Below are positions 10,212-41,651 of a DNA stretch of 57,702 bases, piece after piece. Source of the stretch: an uncultured archaeon (GTDB lineage: Archaea; Iainarchaeota; Iainarchaeia; Iainarchaeales; VGJJ01). The notes beneath the pieces were generated by a model that saw only the letters and a list, made by a program, of their open reading frames with translations, ran no database searches and was not told the DNA's origin. A program made the translations under genes and the position numbers. The stretch's first letter is position 1, and every line of letters starts with the position of its first letter. The stretch is from NCBI GenBank assembly GCA_964372665.1, contig CAYJRE010000003.1, positions 1 through 57,702 of the forward strand, in the 5' to 3' direction.

Positions 10212-10430
10212 ATGAACCCGGGAAGAAGACCGCCTCGAAACAAGGGAAAGGGGAGAACGCCCCTCACCGAACGATTGAGGAAGAACAACTGGGCCCCCGG
10301 TAGTGCCGCCCATTTTCTATCGCAAAAACAGGGGCAGGGAGTGCATCTCAACTTGATTGCCATAAATCTGGGAGCGACGCGCGAACAGGTGGTTGCGGCA
10401 CTACGACGGATCGCGAGGCAAAAAAAATGA
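10212..10430 (+). CDS. Small basic hypothetical protein (possible DNA-binding)
   Basis: 72 aa from ATG 10212. The stop overlaps the next start (ATGA). The C-terminal INLGATREQVVAALRRIARQ looks helix-turn-helix-like. Coding status is uncertain. Confidence 0.35.
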   Translation: MNPGRRPPRNKGKGRTPLTERLRKNNWAPGSAAHFLSQKQGQGVHLNLIAINLGATREQVVAALRRIARQKK

Positions 10431-22866: not shown

Positions 22867-22872
22867 TTTTTT

Positions 22873-25322: not shown

Positions 25323-25351
25323 AGCGGGAGTGTCACCTCAATGATATTATT

Positions 25352-26803: not shown

Positions 26804-26839
26804 TTTTCATTCCTCTTTTCTTTTCGCTCTTCATTCTCC

Positions 26840-27294: not shown

Positions 27295-29469
27295 CTACCT
27301 CAAATCCACCCGGCGGAGAAGAAGGGCATTCGTGACCACGGACACGGAAGAGAGGGCCATGGCCCCGCCCGCAACGATGGGGGAGAGCAACCAACCCGTA
27401 AAGGGATACAATACGCCGGCTGCGATAGGAATCCCAATCACATTATAGATGAGCGCCCAAAACATGCCCTGCTTGATTTTGTTCATCGTCGCCTTCCCGA
27501 GCTTCAGGGCGGCCACCACATCGTACGGATCGGAACGCATCAACACGACGTGGCCGGCTTCCATCGCAATGTCGGTTCCCTTTCCCATGGCGAAACCCAC
27601 ATTTGATTGGGCCAAAGCCGGTGCATCATTCACGCCGTCTCCAACGAAACCGACTTTCTTTCCTTGTACTTGCAACTTTTTCACATATTGAGCCTTTTTT
27701 TCCGGCAAAACTTCCGCGAAAACATGCGAAATGCCCAACTGTTTGGCAATCGCCTTCGCCGTGCGTTCATTATCCCCCGTAATCATCCACACATCAATGC
27801 GCTGATTTTGCAAATCATGCACGGCTCGTGTGGCAGTGGACTTTGGTTGGTCCGCGATCGCAATCATCGCAATAGGTTTTGATTGACGCGCCACAAATAC
27901 AACGGTTTTTCCTTCATGCTCGAGCTTTTCCATTTCGGATTCGAACGTTCGCACGTTCACTTTATTTGCGCGCATAAACGAGTGATTTCCAATCACATAC
28001 GACTTCCCTTTTACAAAACCATTCACCCCTTTCCCGAATTCCGCACGAAAACGAGAAACCGAAGCAGGTGGAATGCGCTTACCGGAAATATGCTGGACGA
28101 TGGCCTGGGCTAATGGGTGTTCGGACTTCTCCTCCAATCCCCGAATGGTGGACAACACTTCCCGCTCGTTTTCGGTTTGGGAAACAACCACATCGGTTAC
28201 TGCCGGTTTTCCTTGGGTAAGCGTCCCGGTCTTGTCAAAAATGATGGCATTCATTCCGTGCATTGTTTCCAACGCCTCCGCGCCCTTGATGAGAATCCCG
28301 TTCTCGGCCCCCTTCCCGGTGCCCACCATAATCGCGGTGGGTGTTGCCAGTCCCAGTGCACATGGACACGCAATCACAAGAACCGAAACCGCGGTCACCA
28401 ACGCAAAACCCGGCGCGGATTGAGCCAAAAACAACCACCCCGCAAACGTGAGAACCGCCAAAACGATAACCGCCGGGACAAATACCGCGGAAATCTGGTC
28501 CGCGAAACGCTCAATGTCGGCCTTGCTTCCCTGCGCCTCTTCCACCAGCTTCACGATGCGCGCGAGCACCGTATCCTTCCCCACTTTGGAAGCGCGAAAC
28601 GTAATGTTCCCATTCAAATTAATCGTGCCTCCAACGACCGTATCGTTTTTTCCCCGATCAACGGGCAAACTCTCCCCCGTAATCATGCTCTCATCCAACG
28701 AGGTCTCCCCCGAAACAATCACACCATCCACGGGAACACGCTCACCCGGTTTCACAACTAGCAAATCTCCCACTTGAACTTGTTCAATGGGAACATCCAC
28801 TACTTTTTTCCCTTTGAGCAAATGGGCTTTCTTGGGAGACAAATCCATGAGCTTGCGAATTGCCTCGCTCGTCTTGCCTTTGGCAATCGCCTCGAGGTAT
28901 TTACCCAAAACGACCAGCGTGATGATAATGGCCCCCACTTCGAAATATTGCTCCAACACTAAACCTACCACATGAGCCACGCTGTAGACGTAGGCTGCAC
29001 TCGTACCCAATGCAATGAGCGTGTCCATCGTGAACGTTCCCGAAAACAAGGCTGTCCACGCATCCCGGTAAAACCGCCAACCCACATAAAACTGCACGGG
29101 AGTTGCCAACAAGAAAAGAAGAAAAATGCGGTATGGAAACTCCATGAAAACCATTCCCAGCAACAGCGCAGGAAAACTCAACACGGCTCCAACAATGAGC
29201 ATTTTTTTCAATTCAGCAATCTCACTGGCTCGAACCTCTTTTTCGTGTTCAAGGGAAACATCAAATGTGGCTCCGTACCCTCTTTTTTTGACCGCCTCAA
29301 TTAACGCGTTCTCATTCGCCTGTTTTTCATCAAACTCCACATGCGCTTTCTGAACCGCATAATTCACATGCGCGGTTTTCACGCCCGAAACCTTCTCCAA
29401 CGACTTTTGGATTAACACGGCACAACTCGCGCAATGCATACCCTCAATCGCCAATTCCATTTTTCTCAT
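27295..29469 (-). CDS. copA: Copper-translocating P1B-type ATPase
   Basis: N-terminal HMA GMHCASC, TM CPC motif IACPCALG, DKTGTLT, TGDN, GDGVNDAP. Confidence 0.9.
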   Translation of the reverse strand: MRKMELAIEGMHCASCAVLIQKSLEKVSGVKTAHVNYAVQKAHVEFDEKQANENALIEAVKKRGYGATFDVSLEHEKEVRASEIAELKKMLIVGAVLSFPALLLGMVFMEFPYRIFLLFLLATPVQFYVGWRFYRDAWTALFSGTFTMDTLIALGTSAAYVYSVAHVVGLVLEQYFEVGAIIITLVVLGKYLEAIAKGKTSEAIRKLMDLSPKKAHLLKGKKVVDVPIEQVQVGDLLVVKPGERVPVDGVIVSGETSLDESMITGESLPVDRGKNDTVVGGTINLNGNITFRASKVGKDTVLARIVKLVEEAQGSKADIERFADQISAVFVPAVIVLAVLTFAGWLFLAQSAPGFALVTAVSVLVIACPCALGLATPTAIMVGTGKGAENGILIKGAEALETMHGMNAIIFDKTGTLTQGKPAVTDVVVSQTENEREVLSTIRGLEEKSEHPLAQAIVQHISGKRIPPASVSRFRAEFGKGVNGFVKGKSYVIGNHSFMRANKVNVRTFESEMEKLEHEGKTVVFVARQSKPIAMIAIADQPKSTATRAVHDLQNQRIDVWMITGDNERTAKAIAKQLGISHVFAEVLPEKKAQYVKKLQVQGKKVGFVGDGVNDAPALAQSNVGFAMGKGTDIAMEAGHVVLMRSDPYDVVAALKLGKATMNKIKQGMFWALIYNVIGIPIAAGVLYPFTGWLLSPIVAGGAMALSSVSVVTNALLLRRVDLR

Positions 29470-29778: not shown

Positions 29779-30525
29779 TCACTTTGTTTCTGATTGTATG
29801 GCAGCGATTCTGTATTTGGCTCTGATTAGATATTTTCTATCGCCTTGTTTTTGAATGGCGAAATTGTCTGCCTTTTCTTCCTCCCTGATAAACACGTTGG
29901 TTATTCCAGAAAAAGCAAAAAACGGAGAAATGGTTTTGAGTGAAACCCCCAGTAACTTCAATTTTGGCGTGTTATTTTGAATGTGATAAAGCTCATGCAA
30001 TATTACCGCTTCCAGTTCCTTAGGGGCCAATAGTTCAAGCAATCCAATGGAAAAAAACAGTTTTGGTTTCCAAGAAGTGGTGGAAAATGCGATTGGCTTT
30101 GATTCGTCGATGATAAAAATTTTTGGTGGGCCGATATTTTCTTTTTGGGACAGGTTGTTTATTTTTTCATATAATGGCCCGGAATTGACTTCTTTTGTTT
30201 TGAATAATCGTTGATATAGCATGGGAACAACAAAGTATCCAAGCAGTATTGTTCCCAAGATCGAAGCGGGAATCGCCAATAGAATTGTTGGAGATGCACA
30301 CATTTGGATGAAATGGCAGCCCCGTGAAAAAACGGCGGATACCAATGGAAAAGTTAGAGCGAATAGGTGGGTGTACATCCAAAATATTTTATGTTTGGCT
30401 TCTTTTTTTTTGACTCTCCAAAAGGAAATAATGGCTATTGCTGCAGAGAATAATATGGCGTAGACGCCTTGATTGGCTAATAAGGTGGGAATCCAAACAG
30501 CAGTAATGCATTCAAGTTGAAACAT
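29779..30525 (-). CDS. M56-family (BlaR1-like) membrane metalloprotease, short form
   Basis: Four or more TM segments, an HExxH motif (LHELYHIQNN), and a position immediately downstream of a BlaI-like repressor. Confidence 0.65.
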   Translation of the reverse strand: MFQLECITAVWIPTLLANQGVYAILFSAAIAIISFWRVKKKEAKHKIFWMYTHLFALTFPLVSAVFSRGCHFIQMCASPTILLAIPASILGTILLGYFVVPMLYQRLFKTKEVNSGPLYEKINNLSQKENIGPPKIFIIDESKPIAFSTTSWKPKLFFSIGLLELLAPKELEAVILHELYHIQNNTPKLKLLGVSLKTISPFFAFSGITNVFIREEEKADNFAIQKQGDRKYLIRAKYRIAAIQSETK

Positions 30526-30528
30526 GCG

Positions 30529-30894
30529 TTATTTTTCACCGAACCGTTCATTGAAATAAGCGACTGCCGTTGAACCAAATTTTTCAATCAGCTTGTTAAC
30601 GCTGTTCTCCACTAACTTTTTTTCAAAGTCCTTGCTGCTCTTTTTGAGCGAGTATATGTATCGGTAACCGCCACGACAACTTTCAATTTCTCGGTCAGTG
30701 GCTTTGGCTTTGTATAATCGGTCTAATAACACTGTGACGCTGGTGGGTGCCACGCGGTACCCTTTTTTGATTAAAATTTGGTGGATTTCCTTGGATCTTG
30801 CTTTCGTGTTATGGGATAGGGTTCCCAGAATTTCTCGCTCTAGCTCGTTTAGAGACTTTTGGAGTTCTGGCCGAATGAATTGCATTGTTTTCAT
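30529..30894 (-). CDS. BlaI/MecI/CopY-family transcriptional repressor
   Basis: LNELEREILGTLSHN...KEIHQIL...APTSVTVLLDRLYKAKATDREIE matches the penicillinase-repressor wHTH pattern. There is no C-terminal CxCxxxxCxC copper site. Confidence 0.7.
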   Translation of the reverse strand: MKTMQFIRPELQKSLNELEREILGTLSHNTKARSKEIHQILIKKGYRVAPTSVTVLLDRLYKAKATDREIESCRGGYRYIYSLKKSSKDFEKKLVENSVNKLIEKFGSTAVAYFNERFGEK

Positions 30895-31055
30895 CGTATT
30901 ACCTGGAAGGATACAGACGCTTCTAACATAAAAACCTTTATCCTAAAAAGAGTAAGCATTACACGAAATAGAAAGGCTTTTATATTGGTTATTATCTTGG
31001 TTAATACGTATACATTCTGGGTAATACTTATAAATCATGAGACTGGGTGTGGAGT

Positions 31056-32522
31056 ATGGACACGATTCGATATTGTGCGGTTTGCGGTAAAGAGACCAAA
31101 GACGATAAACTTTCGAGGTTTGGTGAATTCTTTTGCTCTCCAAAACACTTGGACGAGTTTGTAGAAGAAACCAAGAAGCAAAAATTGGGCCAATCCACCG
31201 ACCTAAATAGGGGCACAGAACCAGTTACCATTACAGCCAAAGACCCGGTTACCGTTGCAGGAAACGATTTTTTTTCTCTTTTGAATAATACGCGCGATAT
31301 TTTATTTAAAGAAAAATATGCCAAGATTTTTGCAGTTTCTTTTAGCGTATTGTTGATTGTGTTCGCTTTTTTGGGTGGCCTTTTTTACATCCCAGTCGTT
31401 GACATTGGATTTTTCCGAATGTCTGAGGTTACGCTGTTCGACTACGCGTTTATATTACTGTCGAGCGTGTTGAGCGCCATCCTATTGGCTTTGATATGGT
31501 TTAATCGCGACCAACAATTGCATCTCGGTAGAGCGGGAACTGCAAGCGCTGGACTGGCTGGTTTTATGGCGGCGGTTTGCCCAACGTGCCAAGCAGTTAA
31601 TTTTGTTGCTTTGGGTGCTACGGCCATTAGCATACCATTGGGGCCAATTATCCCATACTTGGGGGCGTTAAAGTTTTTCAGCTTGGGGTTGCTCGGGTTG
31701 GCAACGTATACTACCTCCAAAAGCATTTATTCCAAAACGTGTCCAACCACCGTCATTCCGTTAAACCAACCTCATAGGAAAGAATCAAAAGAAGAAAATT
31801 CGCCAATAGTGCAATTCTTTTTTGAAAACAACATGGGATTTTCATTGCTAACCGGTTTGATAGTAATCCTGCTCTTTAACCAAATCATGTTGATGTCTGT
31901 ATTTGCCAGCATGGTTCCAACCCCCGGAACAGCGGCTTCCATGATTGGAAAGGTGAGCATTCAAGGAAGCGAGTTAGCCTACGGTTCAAAAATTACACTT
32001 AAGCCGATGCCATTAGCTACGGAGGAACAACCAGTCATTGCAGGGTATAAAACAAAAGTAAAAGCACTTCCAACCATTAGCGAGATGACCATGGCGCCCA
32101 GTACCGGAGACACAGCACAAGACTTGGTCAACAACGTGGTGCCGCACGGAACGCCATCCTATGGACAAGAAGCGGGAGTGAGTTTTGATGACCCCATCCA
32201 GGCACAAAATGTTTGGGGAACTTATGAAGGAAGTATCCAGCTAAGCGCAGATATGCAAACGCGTTGGGGCAAGATTGTTAACGCTTTTACTTGTGATTAT
32301 TGTTGCGGCAGCCCACAAAATCCAACGATTATAACGCGATGCGGTTGCGCTCATGCCAAAGCGGCGAGAGGGATGGCGAAATGGTTCATCCAAAAATATG
32401 GATCCCAGTACTCCGATGAAGAGATTTATGGAGAAATGGCTCGATGGTATGCATTGTGGTATCCTGGACCAACGGTAAAGAGAATTGCAGAAGAACTGCA
32501 AGCAAACGGTGGAAGATTCTAA
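31056..32522 (+). CDS. Three-module fusion: TRASH-like zinc ribbon, polytopic membrane domain with intramembrane CPTC, and an extracytoplasmic CxYCCG...CGCAH domain (function unknown)
   Basis: N-terminus YCAVCGKET...FGEFFCSPKH. TM region with AAVCPTCQAV. C-terminus CDYCCGSPQNPTIITRCGCAHAKAARGMAKWFIQKYGSQYSDEEI. ATG 31056 follows GGTGTGGAG. Confidence 0.8.
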   Translation: MDTIRYCAVCGKETKDDKLSRFGEFFCSPKHLDEFVEETKKQKLGQSTDLNRGTEPVTITAKDPVTVAGNDFFSLLNNTRDILFKEKYAKIFAVSFSVLLIVFAFLGGLFYIPVVDIGFFRMSEVTLFDYAFILLSSVLSAILLALIWFNRDQQLHLGRAGTASAGLAGFMAAVCPTCQAVNFVALGATAISIPLGPIIPYLGALKFFSLGLLGLATYTTSKSIYSKTCPTTVIPLNQPHRKESKEENSPIVQFFFENNMGFSLLTGLIVILLFNQIMLMSVFASMVPTPGTAASMIGKVSIQGSELAYGSKITLKPMPLATEEQPVIAGYKTKVKALPTISEMTMAPSTGDTAQDLVNNVVPHGTPSYGQEAGVSFDDPIQAQNVWGTYEGSIQLSADMQTRWGKIVNAFTCDYCCGSPQNPTIITRCGCAHAKAARGMAKWFIQKYGSQYSDEEIYGEMARWYALWYPGPTVKRIAEELQANGGRF

Positions 32523-32550
32523 TCAAACAACAAAAAAGGAGGTGAAAACA

Positions 32551-32787
32551 ATGGAAAAAACAATTTTACTGGGATTGCTGCTTGGAGCCATGGTTTTGGT
32601 TTCAATGTTTCAAGCCATCCAAATCATGGGACTGAGTGAAATACTCTCGGGGTCTAATGGAATTGCAGGAACCAGCAGTAGCAGCGGTACCACCCCCACA
32701 CCAATAGCCGGCAGCCCAAGCACAACAAGCGCAAGCAGCAGCGGTTCGAGCTTGGACAACTTGCCTGCGATGGTTGGAGGGTGCTAA
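32551..32787 (+). CDS. Small TM-anchored Ser/Thr/Gly-rich protein ending in -MVGGC
   Basis: Strong RBS AAGGAGGTGA 6 nt before ATG 32551. MEKTILLGLLLGAMVLVSMFQAIQIMGL anchor, low-complexity linker, C-terminus LPAMVGGC-stop. Confidence 0.7.
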   Translation: MEKTILLGLLLGAMVLVSMFQAIQIMGLSEILSGSNGIAGTSSSSGTTPTPIAGSPSTTSASSSGSSLDNLPAMVGGC

Positions 32788-32901
32788 AAAAATCAACAAT
32801 AGTGGGGAGCAGTATATCGGACAATACCCAACCCGCTCCATTTGTTTCATGGTACCGGGCACAGCATACACTATACCATTTGGTGAAAAAATGGAAACGT
32901 A

Positions 32902-34101
32902 ATGAAAATAGAAACTATGGAGTGGAAAGAGATGTTTAACAAGGACAAGAATATCCTGTTTGTATCGCTCACGGTAGCGTTGGCTATATTGTTAGTGTTT
33001 AATGTAGTGCAAATTAGTGGCTTTTCCAAACTATTGGAGCAAAAGGCAGTTGAAAGGAAAGAACTCGCAAGACCGGCTCAGTTGGAAGTCATTACCTTAT
33101 TGGCAACCGGTTGTACTCAATGCTATTCAATGAAAAAAGAACTCGAGCAAATCACTAAACAAAATGTAAAAATTCAAGATCAAAAAACGATTGATTTTCA
33201 ATCCATAGAAGGAAAATCGCTAGTGGAAAAATACGGAATAAAGAAATTGCCCACCTTTATCATTCGAGGAGAAACAGTAAAAAATAATCAATTGGAAAAT
33301 TTTTGGAAAAAAACAGGTGGTGAAGTGACAGACGAAAACGAAGTAATACTACAATCTACGGCTGCCCCATACTTTGACATCGAGCTCAACAAAACAATAG
33401 GAGTGGTAAATATGATTCAGTTGAGCGCACGCGATTGCAATCAGTGTACTAGCATATCAAAAGTAATTGATGCACTAAAACAAAATGGCGTTGTTTTTGG
33501 TTCCGATGAAACGATTGATTATAGTGAACCCCGTTCGGTTGAAATTATCCAAAAGCATGGTGTTCAGCAAGTGCCAGCATTGCTTTTCTCAAAAGAAATT
33601 GAAGCATATCCGTCCATATTCCAGCAATTAAAGCAGTTAACTACTCAGGAAAAGGAAGGATACTACGCCCTTCATTCTACTAGCCCACCGTACTTGAACG
33701 CGGCTACTGGAAAAACAATAGGGTTAGTTGAATTAATTTTATTGAAGGATAGCAATTGCACAGAATGTTATGATGTGGCTCTCAATAAGACTATTCTTAC
33801 TCGATTCGGTGTCGTAGTATCTGATGAAATAGTATTGGAAGCCAGCTCTCCCGAAGGCAAAGTGTTAATCAATCAGTATCAAATTGAAAAGATTCCCATT
33901 ATTTTGATGTCACCTGACGCGAATGTTTACCCGCTGCTAAATAACGCTTGGCCTTCCGTCGGAAGTGTTGAAACCAACGGCTGGTTTATTATGCGCAGCC
34001 CCGAAGTTTTGGGAACGTATAGAGTCCTTTCGACGGGTCAAATCGTTAATCCTACCATTCCGCCAAATTCAACCGTCGGGGGAGGGGAATCTGGTTCATG
34101 A
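32902..34101 (+). CDS. Membrane-anchored protein with three thioredoxin-fold CxxC modules
   Basis: The TM anchor ends in FNVVQISGF. Three repeats each have a CxxC (CTQC, CNQC, CTEC), and each is followed ~45 aa later by a cis-Pro-like KLPTFII / QVPALLF / KIPIILM. Confidence 0.8.
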   Translation: MKIETMEWKEMFNKDKNILFVSLTVALAILLVFNVVQISGFSKLLEQKAVERKELARPAQLEVITLLATGCTQCYSMKKELEQITKQNVKIQDQKTIDFQSIEGKSLVEKYGIKKLPTFIIRGETVKNNQLENFWKKTGGEVTDENEVILQSTAAPYFDIELNKTIGVVNMIQLSARDCNQCTSISKVIDALKQNGVVFGSDETIDYSEPRSVEIIQKHGVQQVPALLFSKEIEAYPSIFQQLKQLTTQEKEGYYALHSTSPPYLNAATGKTIGLVELILLKDSNCTECYDVALNKTILTRFGVVVSDEIVLEASSPEGKVLINQYQIEKIPIILMSPDANVYPLLNNAWPSVGSVETNGWFIMRSPEVLGTYRVLSTGQIVNPTIPPNSTVGGGESGS

Positions 34102-34856
34102 TTTCAAAAAGCGCTTTGTTCTTTTCACTGGCATTAATGGTGGGAACTGTTTTCTTGTTTATGCTAACGGCCACCCATAATCAGAGAATCGCTTCAGGTG
34201 CAGCGGTTGCCACTAATACAACGGATTCGCTTGCGCAATCAAGTAGTAGCCGGATGGGGCTAACTTCTTTTGACAAAAAATTAGCCATTCAATTAATGGA
34301 CAAAGACGGGGACGGAAAGTGTGATTCTTGCGGAATGGGTGTTGAATTGTGCATGGATTCTGGCCAATTACAGTGCAACATGGGCCCCGATTCTACTATC
34401 GGGGTTTTGGGTTCCCAACACGTTCACTCGGATTGGAAAATTTATTTGAAAGGGAAAGCATTAGGTTCAGCGTTTTTTGAACCGCTAGCAATGAACATGT
34501 CTAATCCCAACAAGAGCACGACAAGCAGTTTTATTCATGTAGACCGGGGAGCACCGGCCCCAGAAAAAACAGGAGACGTGTTGCACATGCATGCAAGCGG
34601 TGTTCCATTGTGGATTTTTTTTGAAAGTGTGGGAATGAAATTGAGCAAAGAGTGCCTTGAACTACGTGAGGGAGAGAAGTATTGCAATGATAGCAATAAT
34701 ACATTGAAATTTTTTGTGAACGGAAAACCAAGCAGCGCTTTGGAGGAGTACGTGTTCCAAGATAATGACAAAATCCTTATCTCGTATGGCAATGAGACGG
34801 ATGTAGAAATTCAAAACCAGTTAAATTCGATTACTGGCTTCTCTAAAAATCATTGA
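34098..34856 (+). CDS. TM-anchored Cys/His-rich extracytoplasmic protein (paralog of 36311..36943)
   Basis: The ATGA overlap gives translational coupling. CDSCGMGVELCMDSGQLQC, then QHVHSD...VLHMHASG...FFVNGKPS...DNDKILISYG, alignable with the 36311 product. Confidence 0.75.
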   Translation: MISKSALFFSLALMVGTVFLFMLTATHNQRIASGAAVATNTTDSLAQSSSSRMGLTSFDKKLAIQLMDKDGDGKCDSCGMGVELCMDSGQLQCNMGPDSTIGVLGSQHVHSDWKIYLKGKALGSAFFEPLAMNMSNPNKSTTSSFIHVDRGAPAPEKTGDVLHMHASGVPLWIFFESVGMKLSKECLELREGEKYCNDSNNTLKFFVNGKPSSALEEYVFQDNDKILISYGNETDVEIQNQLNSITGFSKNH

Positions 34857-34941
34857 AGCAGGAATAATCCGCATGAATGCTAAAAATATGTTATTTACAT
34901 TAACCATTAAGGGTTTGTTTTGAACGACGGGGTGATCTTTT

Positions 34942-35385
34942 ATGAATGAAGACACGAATACAAGAGGAAAAACAGCCAGCGCTGCTGGAACCATTTCGAG
35001 CGGGGCAAGCCTTTTGAGTGGATACCAGGTATGCCATAACGTGTGCATGGGACTCATCGGGTTATTGTCCATCGTGGGAATAACGCTTGTTGGAATGCCC
35101 CTCGCTTTCTTATTACCATACTCGATTCCATTTTGGATAATAGGCGCGCTATTGTTATTGGTAACGGCCGCATGGTACGTTCAAAAACCGCACTGTGTTC
35201 CAAAACACTTAGTGTTGTTCAATGCAGGAATACTCATTGCAGCGATTCCGTTCAAAGAATTACAAAAACTTCAACTCGTTTTTTGGATTACTGGAGGCAT
35301 GATAATTGCTTTCGCAATATATGGCTACTGGACGAAAAGACAACGCTTTAAAAAAGTAAATTCTGAAATTGTTGGCAGTAAATGA
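34942..35385 (+). CDS. Four-TM membrane protein with CHNVC in TM1
   Basis: AAGTISSGASLLSGYQVCHNVCMGLIGLL. RBS GGGGTGA. Confidence 0.7.
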   Translation: MNEDTNTRGKTASAAGTISSGASLLSGYQVCHNVCMGLIGLLSIVGITLVGMPLAFLLPYSIPFWIIGALLLLVTAAWYVQKPHCVPKHLVLFNAGILIAAIPFKELQKLQLVFWITGGMIIAFAIYGYWTKRQRFKKVNSEIVGSK

Positions 35386-35468
35386 AAGCTTCCAATTCGA
35401 ATGTTTCCCCACCAGAAAGCGCTACTACCTGAGACATTTCGGCAGTTCTAAGACCTTTGATATCCCTA

Positions 35469-35573
35469 TCAATGGAACGGGGGCTTTCCTGTGTCTATAC
35501 GTTTTGCTGCGACACAACCGATTGCGAAAATTATCCCGATGAGTAACAGAATCAGCATCACACTTTTCTTCAT
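35469..35573 (-). CDS. 34-aa lipoprotein-like micro-ORF coupled to the upstream membrane-protein gene
   Basis: MKKSVMLILLLIGIIFAIGCVAAKRIDTGKPPFH. Its ATG overlaps the TGA of gene 35570..36085 (ATGA). Lipobox-like AIGC. It is below the ORF-track size cutoff. Confidence 0.3.
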   Translation of the reverse strand: MKKSVMLILLLIGIIFAIGCVAAKRIDTGKPPFH

Positions 35574-36085
35574 TTTATTTTACCTCGTGAAGATAGAAAT
35601 TTGGATTGCTCATACACAGCATACGACAAGAGAATTACGCTCATTACACCAAGCACTGGCTGCAAAGGCATAAAGTACGCTACCACGCCTGTCACGCCCA
35701 AAAGAAGTATTAGCACTTTATTGCATATCGCACACCCAAAGGAAAATAAACCGCCTACCGCCCCACCCGTTGCTACATAGTTGCAAATTGTTTGCGTCTT
35801 TCTAGTATAATACCACAACCCCACGTAAGTTCCTGAGAGTATCGAAGTCAGAACGAGGAATACATAATCATAATTGTATACCGGTGTCATTCTGACGAAA
35901 ATATCATTTGGCAGGAGCACGGTAATAATACCGAATGCTGAAAAGATTGCCAAGGCAGTCGCACTGCCCACGATTATTGAACGAGTGTTTAGTTTTTCCC
36001 GTTTATGATTTCCCCACATAGTTCCCCGTGATTTTTTATTCCAAGACTCGAAATACTTCCTTGTAACTTCTTTTGGTAAAGGCAT
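35570..36085 (-). CDS. Polytopic membrane protein with intramembrane CAIC (paralog of the membrane module of 31056..32522)
   Basis: FVRMTPVYNYDYVFLVLTSILSG...FSFGCAICNKVLILLLG...PLQPVLG aligns with FRMSEVTLFDYAFILLSSVLSA...AAVCPTCQAVNFVALG...PLGPIIP. Confidence 0.75.
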   Translation of the reverse strand: MPLPKEVTRKYFESWNKKSRGTMWGNHKREKLNTRSIIVGSATALAIFSAFGIITVLLPNDIFVRMTPVYNYDYVFLVLTSILSGTYVGLWYYTRKTQTICNYVATGGAVGGLFSFGCAICNKVLILLLGVTGVVAYFMPLQPVLGVMSVILLSYAVYEQSKFLSSRGKIK

Positions 36086-36138
36086 ATCGTATGTTTATTT
36101 TATTGATTTTTGGATGCGAGGATTACCCCGACCCAGTA

Positions 36139-36265
36139 GCGCGACACTCCCACGCCTAAAGGCGTGGGCTTCTGTTGAAATGGCGTTGGAGAAGCGCGAT
36201 TATAAACGGCTACGCCTTTACTCTTGCCTGAAAGGCAGGGGCTTCGGGCGAGGGAGTGTCAGTGA
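36139..36265. repeat. Long copy of the MITE-like or structured repeat (ends gacactccc/gggagtgtc, two CC-T(G)AAA-GG hairpins)
   Basis: gcgcgacactccc + hairpin cccacgcc-taaa-ggcgtggg + ~52-nt spacer + hairpin ctcttgcc-tgaaa-ggcagggg + cttcgggcgagggagtgtcagtga. The ends and the second hairpin match 10023..10076. Confidence 0.5.
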
Positions 36266-36310
36266 AAAAACAACACGGACTTGCTTATTCACTTAAAGGA
36301 AACAATATTC

Positions 36311-36943
36311 TCACGCGGAATCCCCCCCAGGCTCCATTCGAATCGTATATTTGTCTCCATCGCGGATAACCCGATTATCAAATTCGGTGTTTTCCTGGCC
36401 ATTCACTAAAAAAGTCATGACCGCCGGTGCGCCATTGGGGCAATTCTCCCCCACTTTCTTTCCATTAAACTCATTTTGAGTAAATGTTATTCCAATTCGG
36501 CGCATGAACTTTCCTACGGTTATTTGGTCGGGGGCGGTTGCATTCCCTTCGAGATGAATGCGTTGATCCCCATGCGTGTGCAATAAGTGGTCAACAATTG
36601 GCGCATTCGGCATGATGAAGGGTTCCCCACAAACACTACCATCCACATCCGCATGCCAGTGAACATTTCCAGTTGGAAACGACAATCCAACGGTATTGTA
36701 AGGAGTAGTGGGTGAATCGTTTTTGGGATTGAATACCCCGACGGCGAATGCGGAGGCCAATATCCCCAAAACGAGAACAATAAGGATTGGAATTTTCATT
36801 TTCTTAAAAAAGGAAAATCTTTCTGTTTCAACGGGTTTGGTTTCCGAGTGCTTGGCCTTCCGATGCATTAATAGTGCGTCCGCGTTCGAGAATGTTCTTT
36901 GGCAATGGTCGCACCGACTCTCTCCTTCGCTCATTTCACTCAT
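36311..36943 (-). CDS. C2H2 zinc finger, TM anchor and His-rich extracytoplasmic domain protein (paralog of 34098..34856)
   Basis: CDHCQRTFSNADALLMHRKAKH (C-x2-C-x12-H-x4-H), a TM segment, then VHWHADVDG...LLHTHGDQRIHLEG...FLVNGQEN...DGDKYTIRM. Confidence 0.75.
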   Translation of the reverse strand: MSEMSEGESRCDHCQRTFSNADALLMHRKAKHSETKPVETERFSFFKKMKIPILIVLVLGILASAFAVGVFNPKNDSPTTPYNTVGLSFPTGNVHWHADVDGSVCGEPFIMPNAPIVDHLLHTHGDQRIHLEGNATAPDQITVGKFMRRIGITFTQNEFNGKKVGENCPNGAPAVMTFLVNGQENTEFDNRVIRDGDKYTIRMEPGGDSA

Positions 36944-37156
36944 GCTGAAAGGCCACCAAATAGTTCAATGCAAAAACAAGCAAGACGATGCTATAAGCCG
37001 CTATGTTATATTCTAGCTGGTTATTAACCTTTTCCCAAAAGTACACGCCAAAAGTCCGATCTTCTCGTTTCCATCGGCGACCTGCTCAGTTCTTCTTTAA
37101 TACTATCCCATCAAGAGGGCTCTATTGAAAGTCTTTGTTTTTAAACCCCGGCAGGT

Positions 37157-37438
37157 TTGAGTCCTGCCGGGTTGGGAGAAACCATTCGAGGTGGTTCCCC
37201 CGTGAATGAAGCTAAGATTATTCGTAAAATTAAGCGTTTGCTTCGGCGAGCAAACGCTCCGCGTTATCTGCATCATTTTGGTCCCAAAAAGTACAAGTTT
37301 TGGCAACACGTTTTAGCGTTGTTCGTGAAACAAGAATGTAAACTCTCGTTCCGAAGAGTCGTTTCGCTCCTGCGTGGATTTGGATTTAACGTTCCAAGTT
37401 ATTCCGCGCTTGCAAAAATGACCTCCTCCGTGGCCTAA
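37157..37438 (+). pseudogene. N-terminal fragment of an IS4/IS5-like (DDE) transposase
   Basis: KKYKFWQHVLALFVKQECKLSFRRVVSLL...NVPSYSALAKM resembles the N-terminal HTH region of IS5-type transposases (FTxHQLLALLLLK...YR..VELL...VPHFSTL). The ORF stops after 93 aa and no DDE part follows. Confidence 0.45.
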
Positions 37439-37569
37439 AGGCCACGGTATTCAATTGGGCATGAACGACACTTGCTCGCGTGCTCGCTCGCCAAACAATG
37501 GGCGACGAATGTCGCCCTAAAGGGCGAGGTATCAGACCTTTTTGATCGAACTTTTTTCTAAAAAGTTCG
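37428..37569 (+). repeat. Cluster of GC-rich hairpins, two with CC-TAAA-GG apex
   Basis: ccgtggcc-taaa-ggccacgg (37428-37447). gggcgac-gaat-gtcgccc (37500-37517) overlaps tcgccc-taaa-gggcga (37512-37527). cgaactttt-N5-aaaagttcg (37547-37569). Confidence 0.45.
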
Positions 37570-37681
37570 AATGAATCTGGTGGTGCTCAATGCGGAGTTG
37601 CGACCCGGAATCCCTACGCTCGCTTTTCAATCCGAAATGGCGATGCCGTCGAATGGGAATCCCGAACGACAGAAATAGGAA

Positions 37682-38572
37682 TCAAACCGAGGAATCCATT
37701 TCCCACCTAAATATGCGATCCACGCCCCCCACGTTTTGGAGTACCAATGTGACTATGGCCATTTTCGACGGAATCGAATCGAACCGGAGTATGCCACTCC
37801 GGTGATGGCCGCCCAGTGCGCTGCCATCCCACGATACCGGAAAATATTTTTTACCCCGCTCATCCATGACATACGCTATTTTTTGGACGGAAAAATCCAA
37901 TTCGGTCTGATGCGTGTCAAACGCAATCTTGAACGCGATATGCGAATTAGAAAGAATGGGGGTCGCTTTCACCTCGACCCCGTTCTGAGAGCTCGTTTGA
38001 GTGGAGAGCAAAACGGCATCCGGCGAACCTACTGCCAAGGTTTGAGGAAGAAACCACGTGAAGGCGGCCAAGGCCGTTATACCAATCGCGCCCAAAACTG
38101 CCACCGTGTTCCGGATTTCCGCCCACGGCCATCCTTCCGCGAACGGAAAAGGAAAAACGCGGTGCCGTTGTAACAGGGAAAGCATGAGGGTTATCCCCAC
38201 CACACTTGAAACGATTCCTAGAACCATGAAGAAGGACTGGTACTCACTGAAAAACAAAAAAACGCCCGACAGCCCCAGAAAGGGGAGAATGTCCGTGACG
38301 TGGTGCAAACAACACGCAATCATGGTTCCTGCTGAAGTCCCTCCAGTGGCGGCCATCTGAGCGGAAGAGACGCGGTTCGCAAGTTCGGTGCGTCCATAAA
38401 AAAACAACCCCATTTGGGTGGCAAAACCAGCGGCCAACAGCAAGATGAGGAAACCGTATTCGCGAATCTGTTCCGCGACATGCGAGGGGCCGTTGAAAAC
38501 GAACGTGATGCCCCCATAAAGGAGCAACAATAATAATCCAGAAATAATCCCATAATAGGTTTCTTTGCGCAT
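37682..38572 (-). CDS. Polytopic membrane protein with vicinal-Cys ACCLHH motif plus a C-terminal beta-rich domain (GGHHRSG)
   Basis: ATGGTSAGTMIACCLHHVTDILPFLGLSG within a TM segment. The C-terminal ~110 aa are soluble (AFDTHQTELDF...WDGSALGGHHRSGILRF). ATG 38572 follows GGAGTGA. Confidence 0.75.
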   Translation of the reverse strand: MRKETYYGIISGLLLLLLYGGITFVFNGPSHVAEQIREYGFLILLLAAGFATQMGLFFYGRTELANRVSSAQMAATGGTSAGTMIACCLHHVTDILPFLGLSGVFLFFSEYQSFFMVLGIVSSVVGITLMLSLLQRHRVFPFPFAEGWPWAEIRNTVAVLGAIGITALAAFTWFLPQTLAVGSPDAVLLSTQTSSQNGVEVKATPILSNSHIAFKIAFDTHQTELDFSVQKIAYVMDERGKKYFPVSWDGSALGGHHRSGILRFDSIPSKMAIVTLVLQNVGGVDRIFRWEMDSSV

Positions 38573-38582
38573 ATGGTTTTTT

Positions 38583-39137
38583 TCACTCCTTACAGCAATC
38601 CACGAGCTTCTTGATGGTTTCCACAATTCCAACACTTGGATTTGAGCCCCGAAACAACCCTGGATTATTCTTTTTCACTTTTTCTGAAACACTGCCCTTT
38701 TCCTGCAACGGCAAATCAAGGGCTAGACCCATGAATAGGGAATACACCTCGAATCCACGAGAAAAATAGTTGGCCGCCTCACTCTCGTTTCCTGAATCCA
38801 ACTCTTTCGTGCCGACTTCCAACAATCGCATGGAAGCGGCCAGCAGGTGCTTGGAAATACACCACTCTTCCGCGGAAGGATTCCGTATGAGCTTTTTCAT
38901 GAACTCCTTCCGTATTTCTCGGATGGTGGAAAGCATGGTCAGGTATTTCTCATCGAATGTTTTGGCGAACGAAAACGCTAAATGCTCCTCCAGTGAAATA
39001 AGATTCATCAACCCGATGCTCAAGTCGGCATCCTTCGACAAATCCGCTTGCGAGAAAGAAAACTTTTTGACATCGTTAATCCAATCATCCGAAACGGGGG
39101 CGTTTTTTGCCCATTTCTTTTCGTTTTGATTTGTCAT
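38583..39137 (-). CDS. Cytoplasmic helical hypothetical protein ending in -VDCCKE
   Basis: 184 aa with no TM segment and a vicinal Cys pair four residues from the C-terminus. Its start abuts the stop of the upstream gene. Confidence 0.7.
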   Translation of the reverse strand: MTNQNEKKWAKNAPVSDDWINDVKKFSFSQADLSKDADLSIGLMNLISLEEHLAFSFAKTFDEKYLTMLSTIREIRKEFMKKLIRNPSAEEWCISKHLLAASMRLLEVGTKELDSGNESEAANYFSRGFEVYSLFMGLALDLPLQEKGSVSEKVKKNNPGLFRGSNPSVGIVETIKKLVDCCKE

Positions 39138-39668
39138 TCAAAGGCCCCCCGCCATAAACAACAGGCTCGTGATGACCAATAGACCCAAAGTGAGCCAAAT
39201 GCCCTGGAACGGAACCAAAACTCGGCCGTGTTTTCGCTTCATCCATTCGTGCATTTGTAATGCGAAAAGGGATACCAATGCGCCCACCAAGCCTCCTGCC
39301 AAAAAGAAGGAAGGGAAGTATGCCTGGTTCAACAGGCCTCCACTCTGCCCCAGCCAAAAGATGGGCAAATAAAACATATCACGGCTCAACGCCTGCAATG
39401 GAATGATCGTGAGCAACCATGAACCGCCAATCAGCAATGGCGTTTGCAATGGAACTTTTTTCCCCAGCTTGCGGGAAAACCATATCCCTGTGCTCACCGC
39501 AAACGCGCCCACGAACAATCCGACGATGCTATCGCTCAACCCGAATGCTCGTGCGCCGAGAATTCCAACCCCGATAGCTGCTGTACAGAGGGGACAATGG
39601 GCGTGCACGACAGCAGCACTACCAAAAATCCCACCTAACACCGCTAGCCAACGACCCATTTTCTGCAT
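39138..39668 (-). CDS. Polytopic membrane protein with HAHCPLC motif in TM1
   Basis: MQKMGRWLAVLGGIFGSAAVVHAHCPLCTAAIGVGILG. RBS GGGTGGGGGA 7 nt upstream of ATG 39668. Confidence 0.7.
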   Translation of the reverse strand: MQKMGRWLAVLGGIFGSAAVVHAHCPLCTAAIGVGILGARAFGLSDSIVGLFVGAFAVSTGIWFSRKLGKKVPLQTPLLIGGSWLLTIIPLQALSRDMFYLPIFWLGQSGGLLNQAYFPSFFLAGGLVGALVSLFALQMHEWMKRKHGRVLVPFQGIWLTLGLLVITSLLFMAGGL

Positions 39669-39700
39669 GATTGTATCCCCCACCCATATCCTCATTTCCT

Positions 39701-40102
39701 TCAACACCCGCCTACCATCTGGGAACCGCCCGAAGAAGGGGCAGACTGGACTTGATCGGGGTGCATGCGCGCCATCATCTCCCCATAGGTTTCGCCCGCT
39801 TCACCGGCGCGGGCATCGGCACTGGCCCCCGCCAAGGAAACGCTTCCCGTAATGGGAGAATAGGCTTTCTGCAGGGCTCCAATCTGAAAGGCTTGCACGA
39901 CATTGAGCACCAATAACATGCCCACACCCGCGAGCAACGCATAATGTTTCCAATTCGCTTGAGAATCATGCGTATGCTCCGCAGGCGCATTCCGCGATTT
40001 TTCCTCACAGTGTTCGCACGGCATACTAGCAACACCCCCTGTCGTGATTGTGTCCTTGTTTCTTCGAATCTTTTTTATCAGATCGACTTTTTTCTGTTTC
40101 AT
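39701..40102 (-). CDS. Cys/His N-tail, TM anchor, tail ending in -MVGGC
   Basis: MPCEHCEEKSRNAPAEHTHD (cytoplasmic), anchor LLVLNVVQAFQIGAL, Ala/Gly/Ser-rich linker, C-terminus GGSQMVGGC-stop. Confidence 0.7.
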   Translation of the reverse strand: MKQKKVDLIKKIRRNKDTITTGGVASMPCEHCEEKSRNAPAEHTHDSQANWKHYALLAGVGMLLVLNVVQAFQIGALQKAYSPITGSVSLAGASADARAGEAGETYGEMMARMHPDQVQSAPSSGGSQMVGGC

Positions 40103-40203
40103 TCATCTGTCATCACTCTCCCATGAACGATTGGATCTTTCGTTTTCGAACCCTTCGTTCCATTCTACTTTGTGATTCACTGATTCGCTCTTCGTTGCTC
40201 ATG

Positions 40204-40914
40204 CTAACACCCTCCCACCATGTTTCCACCGCTCGAACTTTTTTGCTTCTCGATTCCGCGGTAAAGATTCGAGGCCAAATTGACATAATTGAACTCGATC
40301 CCGTTGTCCTCGAGCGCTTTCGCCTTCTGCGCTAGCGCGGAAGGAAAAAATAGGGTTTTCCATTTTCCGAGCTCATCCAAAATCTGCTCGTCTGAAAACT
40401 CGCTTCCGTGCTGGGTGATCAGATATTTTGCCAGGCCTCGCATGGCATAACTGTGCGCACACCCGCAAGCGGGGTTTCCTTCTGCATCTGTAATTGCAGG
40501 AGCCCCACAGCAATATTCGCAGCTTATGGAATTGGTTATTTTAATGTAGCGCGACAAGTCATCCCCTTCCAAGGTTATGCTCTGATCCAACGCTGCCAAT
40601 TTTCGAATCGTCGCATCGGCCAACTGGGCGTTTTTCGCCGAAACATCATCGAATGAAACACTCAATTCAGTTCCATACACGAGCGGAATGCCTTTGGGCA
40701 ATACCTTTTCCACATCTAATGCGACTTTGTTTTCCTCCGATTTGACAAGATTTCCAGTGTCCACCAGAGTATTTTGTGCTGCGCTCAATCCAGAATTACT
40801 TACAGAAATGGGCAGGGTGGTTAATCCAGTCATGTTCCACGCGTTGACGAGCGTCAGAATGAGAGCGACTCCCATCAGCCCAAGCGTGACACCGTAAATA
40901 GTTGCAATTTTCAT
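40204..40914 (-). CDS. TM-anchored CxYCCG...CGCAH domain protein ending in -MVGGC
   Basis: Strong RBS GAAGGAGGT. Anchor ALILTLVNAWNMTGL. CEYCCGAPAITDAEGNPACGCAHSYAMRGLAKYLITQHGSEFSDEQI. C-terminus SSSGGNMVGGC-stop. Confidence 0.8.
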   Translation of the reverse strand: MKIATIYGVTLGLMGVALILTLVNAWNMTGLTTLPISVSNSGLSAAQNTLVDTGNLVKSEENKVALDVEKVLPKGIPLVYGTELSVSFDDVSAKNAQLADATIRKLAALDQSITLEGDDLSRYIKITNSISCEYCCGAPAITDAEGNPACGCAHSYAMRGLAKYLITQHGSEFSDEQILDELGKWKTLFFPSALAQKAKALEDNGIEFNYVNLASNLYRGIEKQKSSSGGNMVGGC

Positions 40915-41028: not shown

Positions 41029-41526
41029 TTAGACCAACACGACGAGGTTGGTCATGCCTCTCCGCTTGCGTTCGATGATTCTCTCATGCTCCATCTTGTC
41101 CAATATCCGAGAAATACGGACCTTGGAATAACCGGTTTCCCTCACCAAATCGGATTGGAACAAGGAGCCTTGACGCTGGACGAGCAACCCATAAATTTTT
41201 TGGGATTCTTCATCCAGCGAGGAAACATCAATGGGGACGATGGCCTTACGTGTTTCTCCCTTTGCTGGTATTTCAACGAAACCGAAATAGACGCCGATCA
41301 GAATGATAACAAAGGATAGCCCGAATCCTGCGACAAAGAACCACGAGGTGTCCGTCTTGTGGACGGGGCACGATAGCATGTCCCCCCCGCTCGCCTCGAT
41401 GTTCTCGCATAAAAAAGCGGCTTGGGCATCATACTGGATTTTCACGAAACCCAAAACCAACGATAACACTAATCCGATGATGATGAGGACGTAGCCGATT
41501 TGCTTTTTTTCCAAGGAAAGGGGCAT
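41029..41526 (-). CDS. Membrane-tethered winged-helix transcriptional regulator with Cys/His extracytoplasmic loop
   Basis: Two TM segments flank FLCENIEASGGDMLSCPVHKTD. The C-terminal LFQSDLVRETGYSKVRISRILDKMEHERIIERKRRG is MarR/ArsR-like wHTH. It is the first gene of the - strand operon. Confidence 0.7.
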   Translation of the reverse strand: MPLSLEKKQIGYVLIIIGLVLSLVLGFVKIQYDAQAAFLCENIEASGGDMLSCPVHKTDTSWFFVAGFGLSFVIILIGVYFGFVEIPAKGETRKAIVPIDVSSLDEESQKIYGLLVQRQGSLFQSDLVRETGYSKVRISRILDKMEHERIIERKRRGMTNLVVLV

Positions 41527-41651
41527 AGTATAGTATGTTCCAAGGCATTCAATAAAAAAGGCACCTTTTGAAGAGCCGCCCATATATCCTTTTCGATACT
41601 ATCCATTTTTAGACTCGAAAAACGATGTAACTGCCAGAGAGGTGATCCGCT

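Follow-up and report, generated by a model that had tools for sequence, protein, structure and literature searches.

The stretch of DNA analysed here, called the window below, comprises 57,702 nucleotides (nt) of an uncultured archaeon of the Iainarchaeota (contig CAYJRE010000003.1 of assembly GCA_964372665.1). Three proteins encoded in the window end in the same pentapeptide, MVGGC, with the stop codon directly after the cysteine. A sequence-only reading of the window had drawn attention to these ends and to their differing codons, and both were found as described when the open reading frames (ORFs) were read again. Two of the proteins are small and consist mainly of a transmembrane (TM) helix and a linker in front of the tail. 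The third, called the Cys5His protein below, carries a folded ectodomain with five invariant cysteines and a histidine. A fourth gene encodes a fusion protein with a related Cys5His domain and without the tail. The four genes are as follows.

31047..32522, + strand: fusion protein, 491 aa; Zn-ribbon/YHS-like CxxC...C segment, multi-TM domain with CPTC, C-terminal Cys5His domain; end ...ANGGRF, no MVGGC tail
32551..32787, + strand: small tail protein of the plain-linker class, 78 aa; TM helix (..SMFQAIQI..), Ser/Thr/Gly/Pro/Ala linker, end ...LDNLPA-MVGGC; tail codons 32770..32784
39701..40102, - strand: small tail protein of class A, 133 aa; cytoplasmic N-terminus with CEHC, TM helix ending in VVQAFQI, linker with GETYGEMMARMHPDQV, end ...SSGGSQ-MVGGC; tail codons 39704..39718
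40204..40914, - strand: Cys5His protein, 236 aa; N-terminal TM helix, disordered linker, folded ectodomain, Ser/Gly spacer, end ...SSSGGN-MVGGC; tail codons 40207..40221, stop 40204..40206

The tail is encoded as ATG GTT GGA GGG TGC TAA in the 78-aa protein, ATG GTA GGC GGG TGT TGA in the 133-aa protein and ATG GTG GGA GGG TGT TAG in the 236-aa protein. The differences among the three are synonymous throughout, and the stop codons TAA, TGA and TAG are all different. Ribosome-binding sites of the GGAGG type lie 5' of the ATGs at 32551 and 40914. With the 78 genes of the window and its amino-acid frequencies, 1.1e-5 MVGGC termini would be expected by chance, and ca. 8e-8 triples with any common 5-mer terminus. 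On this expectation the tail is not a product of chance.

The 236-aa protein has 2073 homologs at E ≤ 1e-3, and the named ones all belong to the DPANN archaea (Woese-, Aenigmat-, Iain-/Diaphero-, Micr- and Nanoarchaeota). Among the best 120 of the 2073, 115 end in MVGGC and 5 in QVGGC. A word-indexed search with the 133-aa protein returned the query only; relatives were found by exhaustive phmmer searching, which gave 54 representatives. Apart from the query itself, 52 of 53 end in [MQ]VGGC or in QQGGC/QVSGC, and the sole tail-less match is an unrelated 775-aa protein. The sequence-only reading had held that absence of the motif from homologs, or a non-negligible chance frequency, would count against it. 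The tail is present in 120/120 and 52/53 relatives, and the expectation of 1.1e-5 disposes of the second concern.

Eighty loci were fetched around the homologs and combined with the window into a set of 81 sources, in which 10379 ORFs reach 30 aa or more; the 28 sources that measure 18 kb or longer are referred to as long loci. VGGC is the commonest ORF ending in this set (160/10379), the runner-up tetrapeptide being found 23 times. The motif is terminal in 153 cases versus two near-terminal ones, both at most 7 residues from the end. Among 154 genome-locus tails every synonymous codon for Val, Gly and Cys (four, four and two) and each of the three stops occurs, and no more than 4 of 83 tail pairs from one locus share the same DNA sequence. 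Selection therefore acts on the peptide rather than on a DNA repeat, in agreement with the earlier proposal.

A metagenome scan with the query G-MVGGC-TAA returned 120 contigs with 217 [MQ]VGGC ORFs. These comprise 89 Cys5His proteins, 123 small TM proteins, 2 divergent Cys5His proteins, 2 truncated small tail proteins and one 29-aa chance ORF. Since the ORFs fall almost entirely into these types, the tail is exclusive to one pair of genes across the 81 genomic sources and the 120 metagenome contigs. Neither the restriction of the tail to two co-operonic families nor the tail-less Cys5His domain of the 491-aa protein had figured in the sequence-only reading. An origin of the tail by chance, as a by-product of low complexity or as a DNA repeat could appeal to the Ser/Gly-rich low-complexity stretches that precede it. 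Such an origin is at odds with the window expectation, with the excess of VGGC ends over every other tetrapeptide of the related loci (160 against at most 23), with the differing codons and with the rarity of M, V and C within the linkers. The recurrence in homologs, the codon diversity and the metagenome scan rule it out, and we give it a negligible chance.

In the genome loci the small tail genes lie directly downstream of a Cys5His gene in 61 of 77 cases. Many of the gaps between the two genes measure −7 to +3 nt, which suggests that their translation is coupled. The architecture of the 133-aa protein recurs directly downstream of the Cys5His gene in other loci, and at some loci two or three small tail genes stand in tandem.

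The two tails of a locus also vary together. When the residue that opens the tail is scored for the Cys5His protein and the small protein of each locus, in that order, there are 71 M/M, 4 Q/Q, 1 Q/M and 0 M/Q pairs. In a tree of the Cys5His domain built after removal of the tail columns from the alignment, Q tails occur in at least three separate places, and in two of these the partner tail has also switched to Q. In locus L021 both proteins (9947..10609 and 10844..11116) end in MAGAC. Recent gene conversion is excluded for the switched tails because their codons differ. Both tails of a locus are thus under one constraint, exerted either by a common binding partner or by each other. Rare variants were also found, namely QVGSC in L026 (10620..10910) and QIGGC in the Cys5His protein of L078; such variants could act as natural mutants that mark tolerated substitutions.

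The Cys5His domain spans ca. 150 residues (about 70-220 of the 236-aa protein) and is mainly helical in the AlphaFold2 (AF2) model. The block-mean confidence (pLDDT) of the domain is 90-98, and that of the whole model is 86. Invariant columns in the homolog alignment include P73, G75, P77, Y80, G81 and E83, followed by the cysteine cluster S-C132-E-Y-C135-C136-G and A-C150-G-C152-A-H154-S, and further by R159, G160, H169, E181 and G-K-W-K. The invariant ectodomain set can be summarised as SCEYCCG...ACGCAHS plus His169, with five invariant Cys and His. Exactly 6 ectodomain cysteines are present in each of 120/120 homologs. Domain and tail are separated by a Ser/Gly spacer of 8-10 residues. The last 16 residues are modeled with an intermediate confidence of 66-72, which is consistent with a mobile arm. 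The sequence-only reading had assigned a flexible linker after an N-terminal anchor to all three tail proteins; this description fits the small proteins, whereas the 236-aa protein has a folded Cys-rich domain and only a short spacer. Lys and Arg average 2.2 before the TM helix and 0.9 after it, and from this positive-inside bias the Cys5His protein is predicted to have its N-terminus inside and its C-terminus outside.

Scans of the three tail proteins and the core operon partners against Pfam and NCBIfam gave no family, and the earlier remark had been that no described sorting signal or cofactor site of this form was known. Relatives of the Cys5His domain in the PDB were found neither by Foldseek (best E 1.9) nor by hidden Markov model sequence search (0 hits). 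The PCYCGC family (PF13798), which is present in some of the same loci, was rejected as a relative: hhalign gave a probability of 1.4% and aligned the CGC alone.

The C-terminal domain of the 491-aa fusion is homologous to the 236-aa protein (32% identity when aligned to the family), and its multi-TM domain with CPTC is homologous to the protein encoded at 35570..36085. Via its Cys domain the fusion matches all 80 loci and falls in cluster 0. Its N-terminus scores sub-threshold for YHS (E=0.14). The 78-aa tail protein directly follows the fusion gene in the window. A similar arrangement is seen in L058, where a tail-less Cys-domain protein is accompanied two genes downstream by a small protein ending in ...LNDLPGMVGGC. 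Because a small tail protein follows the tail-less types, no Cys domain is left without a tail, be it in cis or in trans.

The small tail proteins of the genome loci measure 50-156 aa. Their TM helix ends in (V)QAFQI and is followed by the linker (median 45 residues, rich in Ser, Ala, Gly, Thr and Gln) and the tail. Of 77 linkers, 43 are plain, like that of the 78-aa protein of the window; 12 contain ETYEEMMARMHPDQV, among them that of the 133-aa protein, and 22 contain WTEDEKMNYEHHGT(L/I)PAR. In the 12 the motif reads ETYEEMMARMHPDQ, and the motifs of the 12 and of the 22 are both Met/His motifs. A cytoplasmic N-terminus is optional, and an N-terminal CC or CxxC is present in 17/77; in the window, cytoplasmic Cys motifs occur at the N-termini of the 133-aa tail protein (CEHC) and of the 491-aa fusion. 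In all 52 of 52 class-A small proteins the tail Cys is the single ectodomain Cys, and its thiol can therefore not form an intramolecular disulfide.

Two linker motifs are sharply conserved. The first, (G)ETYE(E/Q)MMARMHPDQV, occurs in the window at 39740..39790 and in small tail proteins elsewhere, and also in an AhpC/TSA redoxin (L010:6843-7502), where it comes shortly behind the membrane anchor. The second, D(M/T)(S/T)GWTE(D/N)EKM(M/N)YE(H/M)HGT(L/I)PAR, is sometimes inserted in the Cys5His protein itself (L032, L037, L050, L065 and L070). Small-protein linkers with conserved motifs are found in L009, L013, L022 and others.

With adjacent, translationally coupled genes, similar TM-end motifs ((Q/N)xxQI), a lone ectodomain Cys in the small proteins and tails that change together, the terminal cysteines of the two partners might be thought to form a permanent intermolecular disulfide, a structural staple. 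Neither the invariant M-V-G-G context nor the placing of the Cys at the very end would be needed for a staple. A 1:1 pairing does not agree with loci that have three or four tail proteins, or with the tail-less 491-aa type and its one small partner, and the metal- and redox-related genes of the operon would be left with no role. We therefore rate the staple as very improbable.

The Cys5His gene and the small tail genes belong to an operon whose order across the 81 sources is REG, the Cys5His gene, one to three small tail genes and, where present, a DPxCGM YHS-like gene and a gene for a 182-aa CGHC protein; then follow the HCPLC membrane protein, CCKE (or a membrane protein ending in CC-R-N-W) and one or more MEM2 genes. 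Besides the tail genes, the window contains the following members of the operon.

41029..41583, - strand: REG, first operon gene; C-terminal DUF7343/MarR-like winged helix-turn-helix (PF24034, 1.4e-12), two TM helices
39138..39668, - strand: HCPLC membrane protein, 176 aa; six predicted helices, conserved AHCPLCT
38583..39137, - strand: CCKE protein, 184 aa; no TM helix, presumably cytoplasmic; core MNLISLEEH...WCISKHLLA, tail ...VDCCKE
37682..38635, - strand: MEM2 membrane protein, 317 aa, with ACCLHH; cluster 2, present in 47 loci; last gene of the conserved operon

REG is encoded directly upstream of the Cys5His gene in 56-66 loci. The loop between its TM helices, predicted to be extracytoplasmic, holds a conserved C...CPxH (C-x12-CPxH), which suggests that REG spans the membrane as a one-component sensor for metal or redox conditions outside the cell. 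A REG paralog, also a membrane-bound winged-helix protein with DUF7343, is encoded at 18970..19851 (+).

The HCPLC gene lies downstream of the small tail genes in most loci, and C25, P26, L27 and C28 are invariant in its homologs. The AF2 model (pLDDT 90) has six helices with CPLC at the N-terminus of helix 2, and the CPLC probably faces outward. Foldseek found no relatives of this fold in the PDB (best E 0.43). The longest HCPLC ORF starts at a GTG at 39707 and overlaps the TGA stop of the upstream tail gene (39701..39707). The homologs align from the ATG at 39668, which leaves the start uncertain; the close packing of the genes is what a single transcript would lead one to expect.

CCKE is present in 33-39 loci and has no Pfam family. 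Its tail is CCKE or CKEW in 25/33 homologs, with the C-terminal signature ...(V/I)DCCKE(W), and elsewhere it is replaced by a membrane protein ending in ...CC(R/K)(N/R)W. Terminal-Cys motifs in the operon are thus not confined to the membrane-anchored tail proteins but extend to proteins that have no TM helix.

The strict position of the tail, with the stop codon immediately 3' of the Cys, would also fit a new recognition, processing or attachment signal, read by an enzyme that could be the CPLC protein or the Cys5His domain. The C-terminal Cys would then be cleaved, lipidated or coupled to a lipid, the S-layer or a partner protein. The concerted change of the tails in a locus is as expected if one enzyme or receptor reads both, some members have the extended form (L)xNLP(S/A/T)[MQ]VGGC, and with folds that have no known relatives an enzymatic role of the Cys5His domain and the CPLC protein is conceivable. 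The carriers, however, already have an N-terminal membrane anchor, and with nothing after the Cys they lack a tripartite sorting signal. The operon has no conserved peptidase or transferase, an M48/M56 peptidase being found in ca. 10 loci only. A signal would be expected on diverse carriers, whereas only two families have the tail. The sequence-only reading had considered Gly-Gly processing and a likeness to ubiquitin-like precursors. No support was found for this idea, as the operon has no conserved protease, E1-like or sortase-like enzyme and the carriers are membrane-anchored and either non-globular or of helical fold; with no β-grasp fold and no E1-like partner the analogy to ubiquitin and SAMP fails. 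Overall we find a signal function quite unlikely.

Several known C-terminal or Gly-Gly signals were considered individually and rejected. Sortase, exosortase, archaeosortase and rhombosortase signals (LPXTG, PEP-CTERM, PGF-CTERM and GlyGly-CTERM) do not apply, with the stop directly after the Cys and the only TM helix N-terminal, and the CTERM models of NCBIfam gave no match to the tail proteins. CaaX or Rab prenylation does not agree with a single Cys at −1 after Gly-Gly in a tail that is predicted to be extracytoplasmic. For ubiquitin-like, SAMP and ThiS-MoaD proteins the carriers are of the wrong type (TM-linker or helical Cys-rich), and neither E1 nor JAMM is present among the conserved neighbours. 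In double-glycine leaders of the C39 type the position differs, the GG being C-terminal here, and no C39/ABC exporter is conserved in the operon.

Genes related to metal and to thiol redox chemistry recur around the operon. ATPases were counted only if they had the copper signature of P1B enzymes, since the single-linkage cluster c4 also mixed in YHS-like and HMA-only proteins. By this count a Cu(I)-signature P1B ATPase (CPC, YNx4P, MxxSSx5N and HMA) lies within 10 kb of a Cys-domain gene in 24/81 sources and is present in 13/28 long loci. A member of the mixed cluster c4, i.e. a P-type ATPase, an HMA-only or a YHS-like gene, lies at most 700 bp from the Cys-domain gene in 11 loci. The small DPxCGM (YHS-like) protein directly follows the small tail gene in ca. 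8 of the 11 loci that have one. The YHS candidates score E 0.003-0.14 and 12.6-18 bits, compared to a gathering score of 30.3, and have the DPxCGM...WFCS motif. A CopG/DUF411 identity of the recurrent 182-aa CGHC protein reached E=0.15 only and is not claimed. Other recurrent neighbours are proteins with HMA motifs, Met-rich and His-rich secreted proteins, an ArsR protein with a C-terminal Cys cluster, DUF2933, DUF5676 and DUF302, a multicopper oxidase and HMA-DsbD-cupredoxin fusions. HMA is found in the neighbouring ATPase and some other neighbours and is missing from the three tail proteins, for which an HMA/Atx1/CopZ metallochaperone (βαββαβ, MxCxxC) was accordingly rejected. Sulfur-oxidation, mercury or arsenic genes were not prominent among the recurrent neighbours of the 81 sources.

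On the redox side the neighbours include DsbA-like proteins, Trx3, AhpC/TSA redoxins, glutaredoxin-like proteins and DsbD_TM. One neighbouring AhpC/TSA redoxin carries YDEMMERMHP, the same motif as the linkers. Trx, DsbA or redoxin genes are present in 17/28 long loci. The sequence-only reading had noted thioredoxin-fold and CxxC membrane proteins next to the tail genes, and this linkage is seen in the window as well as in the related loci.

The remaining genes around the tail genes of the window are listed below.

27295..29469, - strand: P1B-1-type (Cu+/Ag+) ATPase; E1-E2_ATPase, Hydrolase and HMA (GMHCASC) domains, CPC, YN(x4)P, MALSS(x5)N
29779..30525, - strand: M48/M56 (BlaR1-like) membrane peptidase, from the domain scan; divergent from the second Cys-domain module
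30529..30894, - strand: BlaI/CopY-family repressor, from the domain scan; divergent from the second Cys-domain module
32902..34101, + strand: Trx3, membrane-anchored, three thioredoxin-like repeats (CTQC, CNQC, CTEC); downstream of the 78-aa tail protein
34098..34856, + strand: His-rich ectodomain protein, a window ORF
34942..35385, + strand: MEM2 paralog with CHNVC, assigned by cluster membership
35570..36085, - strand: CxxC membrane protein with GCAIC; homolog of the multi-TM domain in the 491-aa fusion
36311..36943, - strand: C2H2 finger, TM helix and His-rich ectodomain, a window ORF

In the ATPase a Gly replaces the first Asn of the TM7 motif N-x6-YN-x4-P (...QGMFWALIYNVIGIP...); the Cu(I) signature is otherwise intact. 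A complete Suf Fe-S cluster (SufC-like ABC ATPase, SufS-like class-V aminotransferase, two SufB/D) with a PadR gene lies beside the ATPase at 21696..27211 (-); PadR and a Met-rich protein form a recurrent pair in related loci. The segment 29779..34101 constitutes a second module with an alternative head, in which an M56 peptidase and a BlaI-like gene diverge from the Cys-domain gene, the small tail gene and Trx3. The same head, up to the small tail gene, is found in ca. 10 other loci, and Trx3 occurs in 13-14 loci, usually adjoining the Cys-domain/small-protein pair. Genes of the 34098..36943 region have members in clusters 0, 2 and 9. The guanine plus cytosine content dips to 0.41-0.43 at about 30000..36000, against 0.45-0.52 in the rest of the window; because the dip coincides with the second module, this module may be a laterally acquired copy of the system. 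The layout of C2H2 finger, TM helix and ectodomain recurs in L025:7662-8396 (cluster 7), with a DsbA-like ectodomain; for the cluster-7 member of the window at 48064..48900 no C2H2 finger was scored. Further away, at 7442..9934 (+), an 830-aa RadA/Rad51 recombinase carries an intein with a LAGLIDADG homing-endonuclease domain.

Taken together, the MVGGC-COOH tail is most likely a functional C-terminal hook, a swinging-arm cysteine outside the cell. Tentatively, with a probability of roughly 0.45, we propose that the arm is a ligand for a soft metal, probably Cu(I). The terminal Cys thiolate would be presented on a flexible tether, with Met (rarely Gln) four residues upstream and the Gly-Gly as a hinge. 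The arm would lie outside the cytoplasmic membrane, according to the predicted topology, and thus on the side of the Cys5His domain and the CPLC membrane protein. It would be carried by the membrane-anchored Cys5His ectodomain and by one to three small proteins built of a TM helix, a linker of ca. 45 residues and MVGGC. The Cys5His ectodomain, the small proteins on their tethers and the CPLC membrane protein encoded downstream would pass metal among themselves. The data show that the tails are conserved, exclusive to two families, strictly terminal and changed in concert, and they show the operon structure and the metal-related neighbours; the outside topology, the identity of the metal and the direction of transfer are what we infer. 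The operon as a whole would serve envelope copper handling or copper stress, under a membrane-bound regulator with an extracytoplasmic Cys/His loop.

Cu(I) is favoured because Cu-ATPase, YHS and HMA genes are linked to the operon, because the linkers hold Met/His motifs, because the cytoplasmic partners in the operon end in CC motifs (CC-K-E or CC-R-N-W), because the regulator has the Cys/His loop and because the tail combines a Met thioether with a Cys thiolate. In blue-copper sites Met and Gln are classically interchanged as the weak axial ligand, and terminal Cys/His tails that hand on Cu(I) or Hg(II) are known from Ctr1 (HCH) and MerA (CC). The sequence-only reading had suggested a Met and Cys ligand pair for Cu(I) or Hg(II). 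Its soft-metal part has the most contextual support, from the P1B ATPases, the YHS-like and HMA proteins and the Met/His motifs; for mercury no genes were seen.

A number of observations weigh against a copper arm. The YHS and DUF411 resemblances are sub-threshold in Pfam. Gln is a poor Cu(I) ligand, and the lineages that changed from Met to Gln argue that position −5 may serve packing or recognition. A Cu-type ATPase is missing from about half of the long loci and may be one member of a general envelope-stress island. Genes for thioredoxin-fold, DsbA, redoxin and CcdA proteins reach about the frequency of the ATPase (17/28 long loci) and fit a redox relay equally well. No position of the Cys domain was found to co-vary with the M/Q switch, in a comparison whose power was low with 11 Q sequences, and a docking site on the domain is therefore not supported. 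The topology, moreover, is predicted, and metal binding is putative.

The redox neighbours and the invariant CPLC at a helix N-terminus in the membrane protein encoded just downstream raise the possibility of a thiol-disulfide or sulfane-sulfur relay, in which the terminal Cys would engage in short-lived mixed disulfides or persulfides and carry redox equivalents or sulfur. Its exchange partners would be the Cys5His ectodomain, the CPLC membrane protein (DsbB/VKOR/CcdA-like in function) and Trx/DsbA-fold proteins. Genes for Trx3, DsbA-like, AhpC/TSA redoxin, glutaredoxin-like and DsbD_TM proteins are found repeatedly in the loci, any bond of the small proteins would have to be intermolecular given their lone ectodomain Cys, and the tolerance of Gln in place of Met poses less difficulty if Met has no role as a ligand. 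There are analogies in the GGCGG arm of SoxY, the arm of DsrC and the CGC tail of Erv2, and the V-G-G-C of the tail resembles the (V/I)-G-G-C-G-G carrier arm of SoxY. Sulfur-oxidation, rhodanese/TusA or Dsr genes, on the other hand, are absent among the recurrent neighbours, and neither Pfam nor the helical AF2 model shows a SoxY/SoxZ-like fold. Known disulfide shuttles normally use Cys pairs rather than one Cys, and a relay would leave the Met/His motifs, the YHS/HMA proteins, the P1B ATPases and the cytoplasmic CC tails unexplained. The tethered thiol shuttle of the sequence-only reading is the main rival to the copper arm and a live one; we consider it doubtful, and still worth taking seriously.

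A further, bolder version of the tethered thiol would be a DPANN-specific extracellular system in which several membrane-anchored proteins would each bring their single terminal Cys in trans to the Cys5His domain. Two routes are conceivable: the tail could contribute a sixth thiolate that completes a multinuclear Cu(I)-thiolate cluster, or it could take part in a new chemistry of the C-terminal Cys, one possibility being covalent coupling or lipidation by the Cys5His domain or the CPLC membrane protein. Even with both routes taken together, we judge this version unlikely. If true, it would be a mechanism without a described counterpart, and more than another metallochaperone.

Among known systems the nearest look-alike in sequence is SoxY of the SoxYZ complex in Sox sulfur oxidation, a soluble β-sandwich bound to SoxZ with a C-terminal ...(V/I)-G-G-C-G-G carrier arm. 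The two have in common a Val/Ile-Gly-Gly-Cys near the extreme C-terminus, an extracytoplasmic location, a Cys thiol on a mobile arm and co-encoded partners. All three defining features of SoxY, i.e. the terminal Gly-Gly, the fold and the sox context, fail here. The Cys of SoxY is followed by Gly-Gly, whereas it is the last residue in 153/155 cases here, and the carriers are a helical Cys5His domain or a bare TM helix plus linker instead of a β-sandwich. Pfam and NCBIfam gave no SoxY match in the tail proteins, and no Sox-like family is present among the recurrent neighbours. DsrC/TusE was rejected as well, with no Pfam match and a single ectodomain Cys in the small proteins rather than a Cys pair.

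The CC of MerA, the HCH of Ctr1 and the Gly-Cys-Sec-Gly of thioredoxin reductase are flexible C-terminal tails whose terminal thiol(ate) serves to fetch a soft metal or redox equivalents or to hand them to a buried site or a partner. In the operon described here the CC-K-E and CC-R-N-W tails of the partners follow the same logic. These known tails are cytoplasmic and belong to well-defined enzymes or transporters; the MVGGC tail differs in its probable extracytoplasmic location, in having one Cys plus Met, and in a carrier fold without relatives. CusF, CupA, CopL and PcoE/SilE are membrane-anchored or periplasmic proteins that bind Cu(I) via Met, Cys and His. Linkage to a CopA-type P1B ATPase is common to such systems and the operon described here, and the Met/His motifs of the MMARMH type resemble the MxxH and HxxM of SilE/PcoE. 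There is no relationship in sequence or fold, and binding is proposed here for a pentapeptide at the C-terminus instead of a folded site. The Scs and Dsb/Ccd systems are similar in combining CxxC membrane proteins with Trx/DsbA-fold ectoproteins and in a genetic link to copper stress. Family scans and Foldseek detected no homology of the Cys5His, the six-helix CPLC and the CCKE proteins to ScsB/DsbD, DsbB or VKOR, and to our knowledge no Scs, Dsb or Ccd system uses a terminal single-Cys tail.

The MVGGC tail is not described in the family libraries searched (Pfam and NCBIfam). A terminal-Cys arm is a device already known; this variant, its carriers and their partners are new. The tail identifies a module of two genes within an uncharacterised metal/thiol operon of the DPANN envelope, and its strictness, with the Cys last and both tails of a locus changing together, suits an annotation rule. 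It is also short enough for direct peptide testing. The DPANN are ultra-small, mostly uncultivated archaea whose proteins are largely of uncharacterised function. In these organisms a five-residue signature ties two abundant orphan families, one with more than 2000 homologs, to a conserved operon that holds two confidently predicted folds without a PDB relative. If the tail is indeed a hand-over arm for Cu(I) or thiols, it would provide a first functional handle on how DPANN archaea deal with copper and thiol stress at their surface, which is also their interface with the host.

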